From assembly GCF_056746865.1 (NCBI RefSeq), contig NZ_CM163382.1: a stretch of 64,000 bases of DNA; one strand, given 5' to 3'. Numbering within the stretch: position 1 is the stretch's first letter; each line of letters begins with the position of its first letter. The notes beneath the pieces are model-generated. The model was not told the origin of the DNA. It searched no databases and saw nothing but the letters and a program-made list of their open reading frames with translations. The position numbers and the translations under genes are program-made. Positions 2,157 through 9,315 of this stretch are shown here, piece after piece.

Positions 2157-3245
2157 TAGACTGGCCCCCTGAATCTCCAGACAATCAATATCACTTAAAT
2201 AAGTGATAGTCTTAATACTAGTTTCTAGACTAGTCATTGGAGAATAGATGATTGATGTCTTAGGGCCGGAGAAACGCAGACGGCGTACTACACAGGAAAA
2301 GATCGCTATTGTTCAGCAGAGCTTTGAACCGGGAATGACGGTCTCCCTTGTTGCCCGGGGATGGGGAGTAAGCTTAGTCAGCCGTTGTCTCCGGGTGTCG
2401 CGTGCGCAGTTGCACGTCATTCTCAGACGAACCGATGACTGGAAAGATGGTCGCCGCAGCCGTCACTCAGATGATACGGATGTGCTTCTCCGTATACACC
2501 ATGTTATCGGAGAGCTGCCCACGTATGGTTATCGTCGGGTATGGGCGCTGCTTCGCAGACAGGCCGAACTTGATGGTATGCCTGCTATCAATGCCAAACG
2601 TGTTTACCGGATCATGCGCCAGAATGCGCTGTTGCTTGAGCGAAAAACCGCTGTACCGCCATCGAAACGGGCACATACTGGCAAAGTGGCCGTGAAAGAA
2701 AGCAATCAACGATGGTGCTCTGACGGGTTCGAGTTCCGCTGTGATAACGGAGAAAAACTGGGGGTCACGTTCGCGCTGGACTGCTGTGACCGTGAGGCAC
2801 TGCACTGGGCGGTCACTACGGGCGGCTTCGACAGTGAAACAGTACAGGACGTCATGCTGGGAGCGGTGGAACGCCGCTTCGGCAGCGAGCTTCCGACATC
2901 TCCAGTGGAGTGGCTGACGGATAATGGTTCATGCTACCGGGCTAATGAAACACGCCAGTTCGCCCGGATGCTGGGACTTGAACCGAAGAACACGGCGGTG
3001 CGGAGTCCGGAGAGTAACGGCATAGCAGAGAGCTTCGTGAAAACGATAAAGCGTGATTACATCAGTATCATGCCCAAACCAGACGGGTTAACGGCAGCAA
3101 AGAACCTTGCAGAGGCGTTCGAGCATTATAACGAATGGCATCCGCATAGTGCACTGGGTTATCGCTCGCCACGGGAATATCTACGGCAGCGGGCCAGTAA
3201 TGGGTTAAGTGATAACAGGTGTCTGGAAATATAGGGGCAAATCCA
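2157..3245 (+). mobile_element. IS2 derivative with an internal deletion of about 242 bp (1089 bp here against about 1331 bp for intact IS2); no 5-bp target-site duplication
   Basis: Left end TAGACTGGCCCCCTGAATCTCCAGACAA at 2157 and right end GGGGCAAATCCA ending at 3245 match the IS2 termini as I recall them. Flanks gatata / atggcg are not a direct repeat. Confidence 0.85.
2248..3234 (+). CDS. IS2 transposase, in-frame fusion of the first ~37 codons of orfA (InsC) to orfB (InsD) created by the internal deletion; 328 aa
   Basis: ORF begins [37 protein letters not shown] (InsC N-terminus) and continues [20 protein letters not shown]... (InsD). The junction lies at a GCCCGG motif; the full identity of the short repeat on the two sides is from the remembered IS2 sequence. 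Confidence 0.8.
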
Positions 3246-3440
3246 ATGGCGCAGATACGCTTGCGGATCGATACCATTCAGACAGCAGGTCCGTTCACTA
3301 CCGTAATCGCTGCCGAAGAACACATTGATTGCCCCTCAATAATCCTGCCGTCAACGTCAAAATTGCTGGTCGGGCTCGACTTATTTAATTGTGTAAACAG
3401 GGCCTCTCAGCGAAAGGCCCTTATGCATCACCTGACGTCG

Positions 3441-4007
3441 TTAAAAGTCACTACACCCAAGATGACGTTCAATGGCACCATGCGATTCAATGTAAGCCTG
3501 GGCCGTCTGTTCCAGTACACCAGGCTCAGCGTTGTATGTGTTAGCTGCATCAAATACCAACGACAGCACTTCAGGATACACAACCAGATGTGTAATGGAG
3601 TTATCTTCACCCAATACTTTTCCCCACGCCTGCTCAATCAGATTTCTGAGAGCCACCACCTCACGACTCTTACACCAGACATCGTTATTAAGTAGCAGTA
3701 CCATAAGATAAGGAGTGGTATCGTTAGCCACAGCTTCCCTACTCCAGAGATAATATAAAGGGGCGGGCTCAACAGATTTATCTTTACGTCGCTTGCACTG
3801 CAAATATTCAGAAATTAGTCTATGCAGTTCACCAGTAAAATCAGCCATCAGAGAGGGAATTGCCTTGTTCATACCTGGGCAAGGTATTAATTTAAATTGT
3901 AATAATTTAATTTTAGGATGTGTAGCTGCAGCCCGATACAGAGTTGCAAGGACATACTTTTGCCAGAGGGCGTTACAGGAAAGCTTAACGTTTGATTCTG
4001 TATACAT
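3441..4007 (-). CDS. hypothetical protein, 188 aa, co-transcribed with the upstream Gp2-like gene (27-bp gap)
   Basis: ORF 3441..4007; AAGGTG 8 nt upstream of the ATG; no recognisable motif. Confidence 0.5.
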   Translation of the reverse strand: MYTESNVKLSCNALWQKYVLATLYRAAATHPKIKLLQFKLIPCPGMNKAIPSLMADFTGELHRLISEYLQCKRRKDKSVEPAPLYYLWSREAVANDTTPYLMVLLLNNDVWCKSREVVALRNLIEQAWGKVLGEDNSITHLVVYPEVLSLVFDAANTYNAEPGVLEQTAQAYIESHGAIERHLGCSDF

Positions 4008-4034
4008 AATAAATCACCTTACAGTTACAATAGG

Positions 4035-4649
4035 TCAAAAACCGCTGTAGCCAAAGTTACGCTGGCCTGATGCTTTAGTGTCGAGCTTCGTCAGATAATC
4101 CAGACGTGCCAATAAGCGCTGATATTGCTCAGGGAAATCAGGATCGTTAATATCCAGGATGTAACGTCCATTAGCAGGGAAATGAACTAGTCCCTGGTGA
4201 TCTTCCAGTTCTAACCCTAAGGCACTGTACCAGGCTCCGGTAATTAACCCTCTCAGGGTGTCAGAGCGCTCATAGTCTCCCAGGTGGTAATAGGCGTCTT
4301 TGTTAAAAAAAAGGCAGACGTGATAATGACATTTAAAGGACTGCGTATATTCTTTCGCCCAGATAATACAAACCGACGTTGCGTAGGTGCGTTTGCCTTG
4401 TTGTTTTTTACGGTGTTGATCTGCATTAATTTTCGCATTCAGCGAGTTACGGAAACGAGATATCTCTCCGGGACTCAGGTTAGGAAAACAGGTAATGGTA
4501 TCCCCGTTGTCAATCACGGGAGGATAATGGAGATCCACCCGTATTGCCGTTATTCTGGGATGTTTCTGGAAGAGGTTATTCACCTGGTTTCTTATTTTTA
4601 ACCCGTGAGCCTCATGACATTCACCGTAAAGAGTTTCAATCGTAATCAT
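4035..4649 (-). CDS. YagK/YfjJ-type (inovirus Gp2-like) protein with an HUH-type motif, 204 aa
   Basis: ORF 4035..4649; motif KCHYHVCLFF (H-hydrophobic-H) followed by tyrosines (YYHLGDY); AAGGA upstream. Family call is from memory of similar proteins in P4-like cryptic elements. Confidence 0.55.
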   Translation of the reverse strand: MITIETLYGECHEAHGLKIRNQVNNLFQKHPRITAIRVDLHYPPVIDNGDTITCFPNLSPGEISRFRNSLNAKINADQHRKKQQGKRTYATSVCIIWAKEYTQSFKCHYHVCLFFNKDAYYHLGDYERSDTLRGLITGAWYSALGLELEDHQGLVHFPANGRYILDINDPDFPEQYQRLLARLDYLTKLDTKASGQRNFGYSGF

Positions 4650-5030
4650 GTTAATATTCCTTTTGCTTTCAGAGATAAGCTAATAGTTAACCTACCCAAT
4701 ACACAACAGAAGCAGATATTAATATTCGTATCAGTAGTTCCCAGAGGGATATATAACCCTCTGGGCGTCAATTAAGAAAAACGCTACTGCCTATTGTTAC
4801 ATTAGAGAACAGGATGATGTTACACAGTTACATTAGAACGTTCTAAAACATTAAACAGAGTTATGATCTACACACAACTAATTATTTGGTATCAGAATAC
4901 CATTAGCTCTATTAGTACATCATATCCATCATTACACATATACTATACATCACAGATATAATATATATTACCTATCCAACGCACATGTATTTATAACTCC
5001 ATTGCCAATAGCTACAAGGACTATAAAATG

Positions 5031-5591
5031 TTACTCTGCAGTTAGATCAACAATACCTTTATCCCAGTGTCTTTTTACAGTGGATAAACTGATGCTTAAT
5101 TTTCTGGCTGTTTGTGACTGACTGAACCCCTGCAATTTCAACTGTCTGATATTTTTACTATGAATACTCCCTTCTTTCCTTCCTGGTTTTCTTTTAATTT
5201 TCCGGATACTGATGTCGGGAATTTTTCCTCTAATATCTGTAGGTAAAATCATCCCGGTGAGTACCACAGGAATATCATCACCATCCGGCAACTCTGATGA
5301 CGTAAAAAAGCAAATATTAATACCTTGTCTGATACTTAAAGATAAAACCTCCTGTATTTTTTCCGGCGTATTACCAAAACAAGTTAACGATTTAGTAATC
5401 AGAATATCACCCCTTTGCATATCCTGCGTCAGGAGTCGAACTAACCGTTTTCTGTCTGCCAGAGTATAATCCGGGCGACCCAATTCGCCTGTTAACTGCA
5501 ATAGTGGTTCTTTAAAATATCTCTGAATCATGGATTTTAAGCGATTAAGTTTTGACCATTTTTCAGAGTCTATGTATGCAAAACTCGCCAT
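5031..5591 (-). CDS. serine-recombinase (resolvase)-like DNA-binding protein, probably catalytically inactive, 186 aa
   Basis: ORF 5031..5591. GDILITKSLTCFGNT aligns by eye to the resolvase GDxLVVxxLDRLGRS motif but lacks the two Arg; N-terminus FAYIDSEK instead of YxRVSTxxQ; C-terminal HTH (TARKLSISLSTVKRHW). Confidence 0.5.
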   Translation of the reverse strand: MASFAYIDSEKWSKLNRLKSMIQRYFKEPLLQLTGELGRPDYTLADRKRLVRLLTQDMQRGDILITKSLTCFGNTPEKIQEVLSLSIRQGINICFFTSSELPDGDDIPVVLTGMILPTDIRGKIPDISIRKIKRKPGRKEGSIHSKNIRQLKLQGFSQSQTARKLSISLSTVKRHWDKGIVDLTAE

Positions 5592-5812
5592 AATGCCTCA
5601 AACTGGTGTCATGAATTAATTATTGAACCTGTTTTTTCCTGAGTCGCATTACTCTTTTCTAAGGGAGGCTCTCCAGATACATCGGAAAAGTACTCGATAA
5701 AAGAGTTGGCCACTCCCGGGTAATGATTGCTCTCTTTAACCTCAGAAAGCGGTTTCTGTTCATCATTTACACCACGATTTCTGGGTTATGAATAAATCTA
5801 CGCGGGCCATAA

Positions 5813-6559
5813 TCATTCATCTTCAAATGGGTTAATAATAATAACATCTCCACCTGTTCTGGAACTTTGTGAAACTTCCTCTGTTCTCAGAACAGGCACT
5901 ATTACAGCCTTATTATTGATATAAAAAATCGGAATATGAAAAGTACAAAATCCTGTACTACGAATCTGATGTCGCCTCACTGTTTCTTTCGTACCATACT
6001 CAATCAACTCATCTATCGGCAGGCAAACTGAATTGCAAAAGTCAAAAAAATAATCCCCAAAAACACTGGTTTTAATCAGAATGGTTTTATAAAACCCTCC
6101 TGCACGATTCAGGGTATGGGAAACTTTTCTGTTCGTGTAAATACAAATTGCCTTCTCAACTTTATAATATTCCAGCATTAAGGTCGCATTCTCTTTAATT
6201 CCCTTTTTCTCTGCAACTCCCATAGCATTTCTGGTGCTTTCATGAGGAAATATCTTTCTATCGAGAACATCATATTCATATTTGATATGCGATTTATAAA
6301 TGCTATGAAAAAACTCTCCTTTTGTTATTTCAGGCTTTGTCCGTTGCACAAATGGTTCCTCATTAAAAAACTGACGTAGCTTATCCTCTATATCAGTTAT
6401 AGCAGCAATATTTTCATTTATCCTGTTTAAAACAGGAGCCCCTAGCTTTAAACACTCTTTAATCGCTGCTGAAAATGAGCATTTTTTTAAATGCTGATAC
6501 TTTTTAATTACATCAGCTTCATATGTTTCTGCAAGAGAGAAAGAGACACGTTTCATCAT
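5813..6559 (-). CDS. hypothetical protein, 248 aa; N-terminal ~45 aa resemble a ribbon-helix-helix DNA-binding fold, C-terminal ~200 aa unassigned
   Basis: ORF 5813..6559; strong RBS AAGGAG 5 nt before ATGATG; AT-rich coding sequence; N-terminus KRVSFSLAETYEADVIKKYQ...FSAAIKECLKLG has a strand-helix-helix pattern. Confidence 0.55.
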   Translation of the reverse strand: MMKRVSFSLAETYEADVIKKYQHLKKCSFSAAIKECLKLGAPVLNRINENIAAITDIEDKLRQFFNEEPFVQRTKPEITKGEFFHSIYKSHIKYEYDVLDRKIFPHESTRNAMGVAEKKGIKENATLMLEYYKVEKAICIYTNRKVSHTLNRAGGFYKTILIKTSVFGDYFFDFCNSVCLPIDELIEYGTKETVRRHQIRSTGFCTFHIPIFYINNKAVIVPVLRTEEVSQSSRTGGDVIIINPFEDE

Positions 6560-6621
6560 GAAACTCCTTTTTAATTATAAAATTAAAATATAGAAATATA
6601 TATTATTCTGATACTATAAGG

Positions 6622-6849
6622 TTAATACTGACTAATCCACCACAATAGATCACTTAATAACCACCCACAGGATTTCTTTCCAATAGTTTTACGTGGCGGG
6701 AATTTTCCTTCACGTTCCAGTTTCCAGGCTTGTGAACGAGAAATAGACGTAATTTTCTGGCGTTCCTTTTCTCGTACCAGTCTGTCACAGGTGTATCCAT
6801 AGATCTTCAAAATTGATAAACGGTTCTCATCTCTTAACGGCTTCCACAT
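6622..6849 (-). CDS. AlpA-family prophage transcriptional regulator / excisionase-like protein, 75 aa
   Basis: ORF 6622..6849; SRSQAWKLEREGKFPPRKTIGKKSCGWLLSDLLWW resembles the AlpA HTH core; AGGAGA RBS. Confidence 0.65.
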   Translation of the reverse strand: MWKPLRDENRLSILKIYGYTCDRLVREKERQKITSISRSQAWKLEREGKFPPRKTIGKKSCGWLLSDLLWWISQY

Positions 6850-7628
6850 ATTGCTCTCCTTATATATTCATGATTTTCAGATTGTATATGCATGTGAGCT
6901 GCTCAAATCACTACATCTATCTGTAGTGGTATGCTGTTGAACAGCACCAGCAACTCACGAGCAAAACAATACATTTGCACAACCAAGAAATCAAATTGCG
7001 AGAAATGATTTAATTAACTGACTTCTAATAACACAATAACAACAAAGAAAGTCACAATATAAAAATAACTTAAACAATGCTTTTTGGTATACAAAATAAA
7101 AATCAAAATCACAATATTCGTAGGTTATTTTATGCAGACAAAAACAAAAAAAATCTTGTTATAATCTATGATATCAAGAGGAGGGGTAGTGACCAAAAAT
7201 TCTCCCCAGAAAAGCCCCCACAACATTAGTTTGAAAACGTGACGAAGTTCACAAAATTATCTTCTGGCGATAATAGAACTTGTAAGAGGGAGTTGATTTT
7301 TGCCAACTTTCTAAAGCTAAAGTGCAGACAAAAGATAATAATTGAATGAAAACGATACATATTTTCAGATGAAAGTGACGTGACTGTAGAGGGCTATAAC
7401 CGTAAAATCATTTGCGTCCTGAGCAATATGCAACAAAAGGGAATGCTCGTAAAAAAATCAGGAATAAACGCTAAGGATATCGTATTAGATTCAGCATCGT
7501 ATAATGCCACTGCATAACTGATTCCCATTTCGTAGAGGCTGTTAACTCTGTATCAATGTCCTGACAAAGGACTGTATCAAGTTTCTCTACTGGAAACAGC
7601 TATGCAATAGACGGAAGAATTTAACATT

Positions 7629-9233
7629 ATGGTAACTAAAAAGGTAAAAACAAACCACCCGTACTATCGTGTTTTATCCGGCACCTCCATGCCGTTTCCC
7701 CACATACATGAAGCTGTTTCCGAACAGTTGCTTCTACTCATTTTCAAAGCACGCAGATTGTATCTGGATCCAGAATATCGTCCTTGGTTTGATGAACAAC
7801 ATCGGATTCTCTCGGCATTACGCGCTAACACAAAACTCCAAAGTATTTTAGAGAAAAACAGAGAGAACTACTCCATAAGTGAGACCGATAATCCACTATC
7901 TAAAGATCTGTATGCTGCTTTTCAGGTTATGTGCCATTTATACAATGGTTTTGATAACAGACTCGTCAGCCTGAAAACCTGGGGAGATATGAACAGGGAA
8001 CCAACAGCAAAATTTGTCGGCCAAAATAGTGGTGGCTGGAAAACACCTGAGATGGAAGAATTCGTCAGAAACGATTTGTTCAATATTCTGACAGATTGTA
8101 AAGCTCATTGCTCACCACTTCCCGCTCTGGTTCGACAAGGATATTGCCATCAGGATCTTTCTGTTGCGCACTCATGTACTAAAGAATTACTGGAACAACT
8201 GAACCGATACCATCAAATTGATGAATCAGCGATACTTGCCAGAACCCTTGGTTTGGCTATTAACAACTGCTATCACTCAGAAACAGAGATTCCTGAATGG
8301 CTTTCTCCTTTTGAAAATGAATACAAAAGTCCCTGGAATTGTGAGAAACCAGATACTAACGATGTGAGTAAACTTAGAAAACAATTGCTAACAATCGGGC
8401 GTACAGAATTCGTGGACAAAATGTTTTCGCTAGCCAACAAAAATGCAACAAAGATAATATATGATGGATACGTTAAACTTTATGCTCTGGAAATATATGA
8501 ATGGTTAAATAAATTAGTGCAATATTTTAAAGGAAATGATTTTATTCGTTACACCTGGAAGTTCACAACAATTATTTCCGATGAAAGTGACACGATTGAA
8601 AACACCACCGCATGGGAAAAAGACTATTGTCAAATCACTATACAGCGTGATGAACTTCTGAAACTGATTTATACCAATACCCTGCAGGATGCAGCAATGA
8701 ATCTTGCTGATTGCCTGCAACAGGCATACACAGAACCGTTAAAAATGGAAATAAATTATCCAGGAATAAACATTGATGCAAAAGAGCGTAAAATTAGAAA
8801 ATCTATTGAATTCAGGAGCGAACTGAATAACTTCACAAACATCATGAAACAACTGGAAATATTTGAAAAATGGTATAACGCCAATAAAATTCTGTTGGTA
8901 AGTAACAAAAAGATACGTACAGAAAAGATTGACGTGAATATTCGTCTTGCAGGACTAAAAGGCTATGATCTGAATGAAGGTATACCTGATGGTCAGGGAC
9001 GCAGAATTAAAGATGGTGTAAATGAACTTGTCAAGGCAGATGGCAGTCTACAACTTCCACAAGATATCAGTGACACTTCGCTTAACCGTTACCGTCAAGC
9101 AGTTCAACACATTATTAAGGATGAGATCGACACGTTGCTGATAGCACAGAGGGAAAAAAATAAAATAAATCCATATAGCGAAGATAGATACTCGATACGA
9201 CCTTTATGGGGAAAATGTCTGGTCGAACAGTAA
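7629..9233 (+). CDS. hypothetical protein, 534 aa, no domain recognisable by eye; integrase-proximal cargo
   Basis: ORF 7629..9233; GGAAG upstream of the ATG; AT-rich; preceded by a 780-bp AT-rich non-coding region. Confidence 0.6.
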   Translation: MVTKKVKTNHPYYRVLSGTSMPFPHIHEAVSEQLLLLIFKARRLYLDPEYRPWFDEQHRILSALRANTKLQSILEKNRENYSISETDNPLSKDLYAAFQVMCHLYNGFDNRLVSLKTWGDMNREPTAKFVGQNSGGWKTPEMEEFVRNDLFNILTDCKAHCSPLPALVRQGYCHQDLSVAHSCTKELLEQLNRYHQIDESAILARTLGLAINNCYHSETEIPEWLSPFENEYKSPWNCEKPDTNDVSKLRKQLLTIGRTEFVDKMFSLANKNATKIIYDGYVKLYALEIYEWLNKLVQYFKGNDFIRYTWKFTTIISDESDTIENTTAWEKDYCQITIQRDELLKLIYTNTLQDAAMNLADCLQQAYTEPLKMEINYPGINIDAKERKIRKSIEFRSELNNFTNIMKQLEIFEKWYNANKILLVSNKKIRTEKIDVNIRLAGLKGYDLNEGIPDGQGRRIKDGVNELVKADGSLQLPQDISDTSLNRYRQAVQHIIKDEIDTLLIAQREKNKINPYSEDRYSIRPLWGKCLVEQ

Positions 9234-9315
9234 CTCACTGAGAAAGGGGATAGCAGTTCGCTATCCCCAAAGGAGACTTTCCAGCAAGATCTCAAAAAAT
9301 GAGACACTCAGCAAA

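Follow-up and report, generated by a model that had tools for sequence, protein, structure and literature searches.

A resolvase-derived protein of the YagL family, most likely a non-catalytic and probably autoregulatory DNA binder of islands with a P4-type integrase

The stretch of DNA considered here, called the window, comprises 64,000 nucleotides of contig NZ_CM163382.1 (NCBI RefSeq assembly GCF_056746865.1) and contains, on the minus strand at positions 5031..5591, a genuine open reading frame (ORF) of 186 codons with an ATG start and a GAGG motif located 5 nt 5' of this ATG. The encoded protein of 186 amino acids (RefSeq WP_000135718.1) is a pseudo-resolvase of the YagL family, homologous to the small serine recombinases, which has lost most of the residues required for catalysis and has kept their DNA-binding part. 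It is most likely a non-catalytic and probably autoregulatory DNA binder, and to the more complete reading, according to which this catalytically dead resolvase recognizes a specific DNA sequence and regulates the conserved backbone of the genomic island that carries it, a probability of about 70% is assigned. An earlier note, made from the letters of the window alone, had already pictured the product of this ORF as a resolvase-like protein deprived of its catalytic residues.

Taken alone, the window protein scores below the cut-off of the Pfam Resolvase family PF00239 (13.6 bits, E 0.073, for a cut-off of 23.3 bits), and its C-terminal helix-turn-helix (HTH), also recognized in the earlier note, passes narrowly that of HTH_7 (PF02796; 24.2 versus 23.8 bits, residues 146-178). 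The DNA invertase group PHROG 125 matches residues 135-177. In protein-library searches the protein groups with YagL-like proteins, several of which have a precomputed PF00239 match, and BLASTP aligns it with YagL of Escherichia coli K-12 over residues 43-181 (36% identity, E 2e-25); the likeness to yagL-type proteins raised in the earlier note is borne out by this homolog and by a matching gene order. The relationship to resolvases becomes apparent with a family profile built from ten full-length members found in a library of 1.8 billion proteins, no bona fide resolvase being included. This profile aligns colinearly with the gamma-delta/Tn3 resolvases, residues 1-182 facing residues 1-175 (E 1.6e-11), and hhalign gives a probability of 97% over 177 columns for gamma-delta resolvase (E 8e-11), as compared with 31% over 55 columns for the phosphoribosyltransferase Hpt of E. 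coli. Residues 1-100 (5292..5591, minus strand) are predicted to adopt the catalytic-core fold of the small serine recombinases, with secondary structure elements in the order beta1, alphaA, beta2, alphaB, beta3, alphaD and beta4. The serine-recombinase homology put forward in the earlier note holds, accordingly, at the profile and fold level and not at the level of the single sequence.

The catalytic residues were located on a MAFFT alignment of the window protein with the gamma-delta and Tn3 resolvases and 12 intact relatives, and 30 members of the YagL family were surveyed. Cleavage and recombination by Tn3 resolvase depend on six crucial residues, Y6, R8, S10, D36, R68 and R71 (Olorunniji and Stark, PMC2794168), four of which (R8, S10, R68 and R71) are replaced in the window protein. 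The nucleophile S10 becomes E10 and R8 becomes D8, within the segment YIDSEK (residues 6-11) in which the earlier note had read an altered YxRVS context; the two arginines of the LDRLGRS motif, R68 and R71, become C71 and N74 within SLTCFGNT (residues 68-75), where the same note had seen them replaced. Both strings occur in the translation as quoted. In addition, D67 is replaced by T70, so that R8, S10, D67, R68 and R71 are all missing from the core domain. Other positions are kept, namely Y6, R45 (R47 in the window protein), D59 (D62) and G70 (G73), and D36 is represented by E36, a glutamate that also occurs in the intact relatives. Mapping of the active site discloses no intact set of serine and arginine residues, and the window protein should, from its residues, be unable to cut or exchange DNA strands.

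Judging from the alignment, the whole YagL family is devoid of the full catalytic residue set. None of the 30 members retains R68, and no serine is conserved in the S10 column or in its neighbours, S9 of the window protein included. Depending on the subgroup, individual residues persist: the Providencia proteins possess R8, with V, A or R replacing S10, and K-12 YagL together with two Yersinia/Serratia proteins possesses a serine in the S10 column without R8 and R68. The window protein has to be filed as recombinase-derived and not as a recombinase because the defining catalytic features fail. This family-wide loss corrects the expectation of a second, serine-type recombinase in the islands that carry yagL.

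The core domain is followed by a degenerate counterpart of helix E (residues 101-134, 5190..5291, minus strand), which contains four prolines, five prolines being found within residues 101-140. Compared with the intact relatives, about 4-5 residues are missing from it, as are the counterparts of E118, R119, E124 and R125. In both AlphaFold2 (AF2) models no helix is built in this region, where the predicted local distance difference test (pLDDT) is below 50. The regular helix E has apparently been lost from the window protein, a loss that we infer only, because the confidence of the models is so low in that stretch.

The C-terminal part is of a quite different nature. Residues 135-180 (5052..5189, minus strand) comprise a minor-groove arm with the GR pair (G137 and R138) and a resolvase-type HTH, i.e., the arm and HTH_7 combination expected of a small serine recombinase, and they form the best conserved part of the family. 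Among 39 sequences there is no variation at G137, R138 and T171-R174, and hardly any at W176. Between subgroups the C-terminal domain is 41-83% identical, whereas the N-terminal domain reaches only about 20%. The recognition helix of the window protein reads SLSTVKRHW, and LSTVKRHW is identical in the nearest intact resolvases. With the arm and HTH intact and most conserved and the catalytic apparatus gone, the DNA-binding-only derivative envisaged in the earlier note finds good support in the residues themselves. In two IMG/VR loci, L025 (2941-3141) and L026 (2977-3153), proteins of 66 and 58 amino acids, respectively, consist of the GR arm and HTH alone; they are encoded between yagM and yagK homologs and have sites of the TGAYACCAA type upstream. 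Such loci are natural cases in which the pseudo-catalytic domain has been deleted. Short proteins of this kind are numerous and fall into separate clusters at 50% identity (P0016, P0019 and P0025-P0031).

A candidate target for the conserved HTH was sought from the intact resolvases that are closest to the family profile. These proteins (P0056-P0067, e.g., from Pseudomonas and Marinobacterium; E 1e-32 to 1e-22) are uncharacterised and come from islands, plasmids and phage-like contigs of gammaproteobacteria. They share with the window protein the helix LSTVKRHW and an ATGAYACCA half-site just 5' of the start codon, and differ from it by the retention of Y6, R8, S10, R45, D67, R68, R71, E118/E124/R125 and a full helix E, by a larger number of half-sites and by other neighbouring genes. 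In four of the five loci examined, res-like arrays occur in the approximately 120 bp upstream of the gene, with 4-6 half-sites reading ATGA(C/T)ACCA or, in the opposite orientation, TGGT(G/A)TCAT, organized in dyads of 32 and 37-38 bp and direct repeats, the last half-site being located just 5' of the start codon.

A position weight matrix (PWM) derived from 18 half-sites of these loci was used to scan both strands of the island modules, that of the window measuring 8.2 kb. The top match in the 8.2 kb, ATTCATGACACCAG (5603-5616), lies on the strand of the gene with its centre 19 nt 5' of the ATG; its score of 14.8 is equalled anywhere in the module by 3.5% of the shuffles. It belongs to a res-like dyad and candidate operator, AGGTTCAAT-N9-ATGACACCA (5604..5630, minus strand), which ends 12 nt 5' of the ATG and associates a strong right half with a degenerate left half. 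A comparable ATGACACC dyad, CGGTGTCAT-N10-TTGATACCT, precedes K-12 yagL and likewise has the half-site as its right arm. The two dyads are 27-28 bp long, the arrangement of a site that accommodates a resolvase dimer. The best match is found 18 nt upstream of Met44 in K-12 YagL and 18 nt upstream of the start at locus L009, and the third-best match 17 nt upstream of the start in Providencia. More generally, the yagM-yagL spacer outscores windows of the same length from its own locus in seven of eight loci (p 0.0002-0.07), with a combined p of about 1e-9 for loci that are related and not independent. K-12 yagL (b0278; L002 5791-5919) is annotated as encoding 232 amino acids, and its probable true start is Met44 (MRSFFY...), because all family members align from this residue and a GGAG precedes its ATG; the ATGACACC dyad falls within the annotated N-terminal extension. 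The sequence at 5604-5630 provides a concrete and testable candidate DNA target for the protein.

The position of the gene is conserved as well. In the window, yagL is preceded by a gene for a YagM homolog (5813..6559, minus strand; 31% identical to K-12 YagM, with PF27701 on its orthologs) and, as first backbone gene, by a gene for an AlpA-family regulator (6622..6849, minus strand; PF05930, E 2.5e-14), and is followed by a gene of the YagK/YfjJ type (4035..4649, minus strand), the adjoining Gp2-like gene of the earlier note. The product of the latter, an inovirus Gp2-like protein (Pfam PF11726, E 4e-55) 59% identical to K-12 YagK, displays the HUH motif (C-H108-Y109-H110-V) and YLTK, motifs encountered in rolling-circle Rep proteins. 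A P4-type tyrosine integrase (10042..11358, minus strand) occupies the island end that adjoins nfeF. The order integrase, divergent ORF, alpA, yagM (PF27701), yagL, yagK recurs in three further loci besides those of Providencia, Yersinia and Salmonella, and in K-12 yagL is similarly inserted between yagM and yagK in an island with a P4-type integrase; the window gene thus occupies the slot typical of this family of CP4-6-type backbone proteins, with alpA upstream and yagM and yagK on either side. The related islands carry variable cargo after yagK, including Lamassu, CBASS, CDI and PAAR genes. AlpA, YagM, YagL and the HUH-type YagK represent a conserved backbone of islands with a P4-type integrase. 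At locus L009 the CBASS cargo is found on the alpA side, the recognised cargo elsewhere residing mostly beyond yagK.

From these observations, a plausible function can be proposed. The window protein is a small serine recombinase that has lost its nucleophile, its active-site arginines and apparently a regular helix E and has retained its GR arm and HTH, and its gene is a constant component of the alpA-yagM-yagL-yagK backbone in islands with a P4-type integrase. Most likely the protein would recognize a specific DNA sequence and occupy what is left of the ancestral res, namely the dyad built on half-site ATGACACCA directly before its own ribosome-binding site, and possibly also a second half-site before the Gp2-like rep gene. 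This occupancy would regulate the expression of the backbone, by analogy with the non-catalytic resolvase subunits at accessory res sites. The regulatory role that the earlier note had considered possible keeps its conjectural character and has gained in its favour the res-like dyad preceding the gene. Both the binding of the protein to the 5604-5630 site and a regulatory effect of such binding are to be regarded as suppositions.

Comparison with known systems helps to delineate what the protein probably does and does not do. K-12 YagL has the same domain order, occupies the same yagM-yagK position and has similarly lost R8 and R68, but keeps R71 and a serine in the S10 column where the window protein has N and E; the C-terminal domains of both proteins are 63% identical, in contrast to about 22% for the N-terminal domains. 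With the Tn3 and gamma-delta resolvases, the window protein shares the catalytic-core fold, the GR arm and HTH, colinearity over the full length and a candidate site before its own gene, like res before tnpR. It differs from them by the absence of the nucleophile, R8, R68, R71 and a regular helix E, R45 being kept, and by a single dyad instead of a three-site res. Strand exchange is not expected because the nucleophile, the key arginines and the regular helix E are gone and one dyad only is left. By acting at res, Tn3 and gamma-delta resolvases are in addition repressors of tnpA and tnpR. In the mutational study of Tn3 resolvase, no substitution in the active site had a strong inhibitory effect on the binding to site I (PMC2794168). 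The stand-alone arm and HTH proteins have in common with the window protein the GR arm, the recognition helix, the yagM-yagK slot and the upstream half-sites, and differ by the absence of the whole pseudo-catalytic domain. Full-text literature searches retrieved no catalytically dead small serine recombinase described as a regulator, which is not a proof of absence, and no publication dealing with HTH-only forms, with the loss of catalytic residues throughout the family or with the res-derived site. The family already bears the label "resolvase-like" in public annotation, and the advance over that label is modest.

Several points weigh against a regulator acting through specific DNA binding. 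A DNA-binder model does not explain why most lineages have retained the N-terminal domain. The left half of the window dyad is degenerate, and the PWM match is borderline against whole-module shuffles (the 3.5% given above) and weak in Salmonella and at locus L024. A consensus scan for sigma-70 promoters yielded fewer promoter-like sites than the shuffles, and no convincing one at the dyad. The loss of helix E leans on low-confidence regions of the AF2 models. Finally, the sole experimental study of the family, devoted to K-12 YagL, reports that the protein binds RNA and acts as an RNA chaperone in vitro, the latter activity requiring the N-terminal part as well (PMC11587861).

A broader scenario of stepwise domestication within a single island family, from an active resolvase with a full res to a dead resolvase with a single res-derived operator and then to an HTH-only protein, is advanced tentatively and is rather doubtful as it stands; in this scenario, the dead form would serve as a dedicated regulator or origin-recognition factor of a widespread and uncharacterised group of defence-carrying islands that combine alpA-yagM-yagL with a Gp2-like HUH replication initiator.

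Among the alternatives, an architectural or origin-recognition partner acting at the AT-rich spacer that precedes yagK, or near the attachment site (att), and assisting rolling-circle replication or the excision by Int and AlpA instead of working as a simple repressor, is unlikely. This proposal takes into account that yagL is always located directly upstream of yagK with an AT-rich spacer of 190-380 bp in between, that the second-best match of the PWM in the window falls in this spacer, that the slot after alpA is occupied in CP4-57 by YfjI, a DUF3987 protein, and that resolvase subunits at res sites II and III play an architectural role without catalysis (PMC2794168). The match in question, TATTCTGATACCAA (4886..4899, minus strand), has a score of 13.1 reached by 19% of the shuffles and is weak by itself, with a similar CTGATACCAG in K-12 and Salmonella; the best site, however, lies upstream of yagL itself, and there is no evidence of replication for islands of the YagL type. 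The spacer also contains two strongly conserved boxes on the minus strand, TGCAGAGTAAC (5026-5040), which overlaps the yagL stop codon, and GTTGGATAGGTAATATA (4964-4980; also given as GTTGGATAGGTAWTATA). These boxes are exactly 59 bp apart, as are CAGAGTAAC and TTGGATAGGTA in six of seven YagL loci from several genera, with unconserved sequence in between; upstream of yfjJ, CP4-57 has similar boxes at a distance shorter by about 12 bp. Since CP4-57 possesses them without YagL, they belong to yagK/yfjJ and were dropped as candidate YagL sites; they could act as a promoter or an origin, or be recognized by AlpA.

Other features of the region deserve mention. The window ORF extends 4-5 residues further at the C-terminus than K-12 YagL, into the conserved CAGAGTAAC box. 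A near-perfect palindrome with 13-nt arms and no loop, CCCAGAGGGATAT/ATAACCCTCTGGG, is located at 4740-4765, about 90 nt 5' of the Gp2-like gene, different GC-rich hairpins being found in the yagL-yagK spacer of other loci. A direct repeat, GTTACATTAGA, occurs at 4796-4806 and 4827-4837, i.e., 31 bp apart, within the AT-rich spacer that precedes the Gp2-like gene, and is possibly iteron-like.

A general RNA-binding protein or RNA chaperone using its HTH on RNA in the manner of K-12 YagL, the principal alternative drawn from experiment, appears quite improbable as the main function of the window protein. In its favour, purified K-12 YagL binds single-stranded and double-stranded RNA with micromolar affinity and accelerates the refolding of the Tetrahymena ribozyme, RNA being bound by the HTH and the full-length protein being necessary for chaperoning (PMC11587861), and it shares with the window protein 36% identity overall and 63% in the C-terminal domain. 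However, the ribozyme of the assays was heterologous and the protein was at micromolar concentration, basic HTHs often bind RNA non-specifically, and the same study, which treated YagL as a predicted resolvase, used the annotated form of 232 amino acids although the family alignment suggests a start at M44. The conserved half-site of the res type and a recognition helix common to intact resolvases favour instead a specific recognition of DNA. RNA and DNA roles are not mutually exclusive.

That the gene is a functionless remnant drifting to loss is very unlikely. In favour of decay, it can be argued that the N-terminal domain is highly divergent between subgroups, with about 20% identity and a proportion of nonsynonymous differences (pN) of 0.5-0.6, and that the pseudo-catalytic part of the gene has been deleted in some islands. 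Yet the frame has stayed open and of similar length in different genera, members from Providencia, Yersinia, Salmonella and Serratia retaining their length at approximately 20% N-domain identity, and the C-terminal domain remains conserved within the range indicated above. pN remains lower than the proportion of synonymous differences (pS) even at saturation, as between the Yersinia and Salmonella N-domains (0.30 versus 0.75); no usable cross-genus ratio of nonsynonymous to synonymous substitution rates (dN/dS) can be given, because synonymous sites are saturated in every pair. Moreover, the gene order is fixed, and the ORF, which 257 of the 5426 complete E. coli genomes carry, always on the chromosome, is full-length in 256 of these.

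The recent RefSeq product name, type I phosphoribosyltransferase, would make the protein a phosphoribosyltransferase joined to an HTH, an identity that is hardly credible. In a phmmer search of the PDB sequences with the single window sequence, hypoxanthine phosphoribosyltransferases (HPRTs) come on top (E 2.6e-4) and the Tn3 and gamma-delta resolvases rank below them (E 0.04-0.1), and in the HPRT match ILITKSLTCFGNT is paired with the loop VLIVEDIIDSGNT that binds phosphoribosyl pyrophosphate (PRPP). With the family profile, these matches drop to E 0.003-0.14; ILITKSLTCFGNT shows K-S at the two acidic positions E-D of the HPRT loop, and neither fold nor profile searches disclosed a phosphoribosyltransferase fold or homology for the window protein. 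The identity was rejected on the evidence of two fold searches, in addition to the profile search and hhalign, the likeness to HPRT being limited to a single strand-loop-helix of a Rossmann-like fold. The name was probably assigned because the single sequence is slightly closer to HPRT than to resolvase. Depending on the annotation release, WP_000135718.1 has been called "hypothetical protein" or "DNA-binding protein" and, more recently, "type I phosphoribosyltransferase" by PGAP, the NCBI annotation pipeline; this last name, contradicted by the profile and fold evidence, is spreading through E. coli genomes and is flagged here as wrong. YagL-like genes in general are annotated inconsistently, "recombinase family protein" being a further name in use.

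A still-active recombinase, relying on a nucleophile shifted to S9, which adjoins the S10 column, or on residues supplied by a partner, has a negligible probability in spite of the retention of Y6, E36, R47, D62 and G73, since R8, R68 and R71, whose single changes each greatly reduce cleavage and recombination by Tn3 resolvase (PMC2794168), are all replaced, no serine is conserved in the family at or beside the S10 column, the helix E region is degenerate, HTH-only proteins occupy the same island slot, and a single dyad stands in place of a full res.

With respect to its surroundings, the ORF sits in a low-GC block (35-44%, compared with 51-57% outside). A search of a phage collection gave no match, PADLOC returned none for the ORF or its neighbours, and an Rfam scan of 3300-11600 nothing credible. 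Between alpA and the integrase are found an ORF of 534 amino acids (7629-9233, plus strand) and one of 208 amino acids (9316-9942, minus strand), both without a Pfam, NCBIfam or PADLOC match; the 208-residue protein matches PHROG 7522, a group of unknown function. On the other side, a second, divergent YagK-like copy stands in tandem with the first (3441..4007, minus strand); its HUH position reads P-Y-L-M, and this copy looks catalytically degenerate too. An ORF for an IS3-family transposase (2248-3234) abuts the island, a 78-nt fragment of a hypothetical gene being annotated by RefSeq between it and the second yagK-like gene, and the distal end of the island is apparently truncated because the IS3 element cuts it.

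A segment of the island also occurs, at 100% protein identity, in CP101363.1 (L019), an 11.7 kb Salmonella enterica record described as a plasmid. It was considered as an excised circle of the island and rejected, the record being linear and carrying chromosomal genes, annotated as methyl-accepting chemotaxis protein, PadR-family regulator and siderophore-interacting protein, which correspond to aer, nfeR and nfeF of E. coli. It resembles a chromosomal contig, possibly from E. coli, mislabelled as a plasmid.
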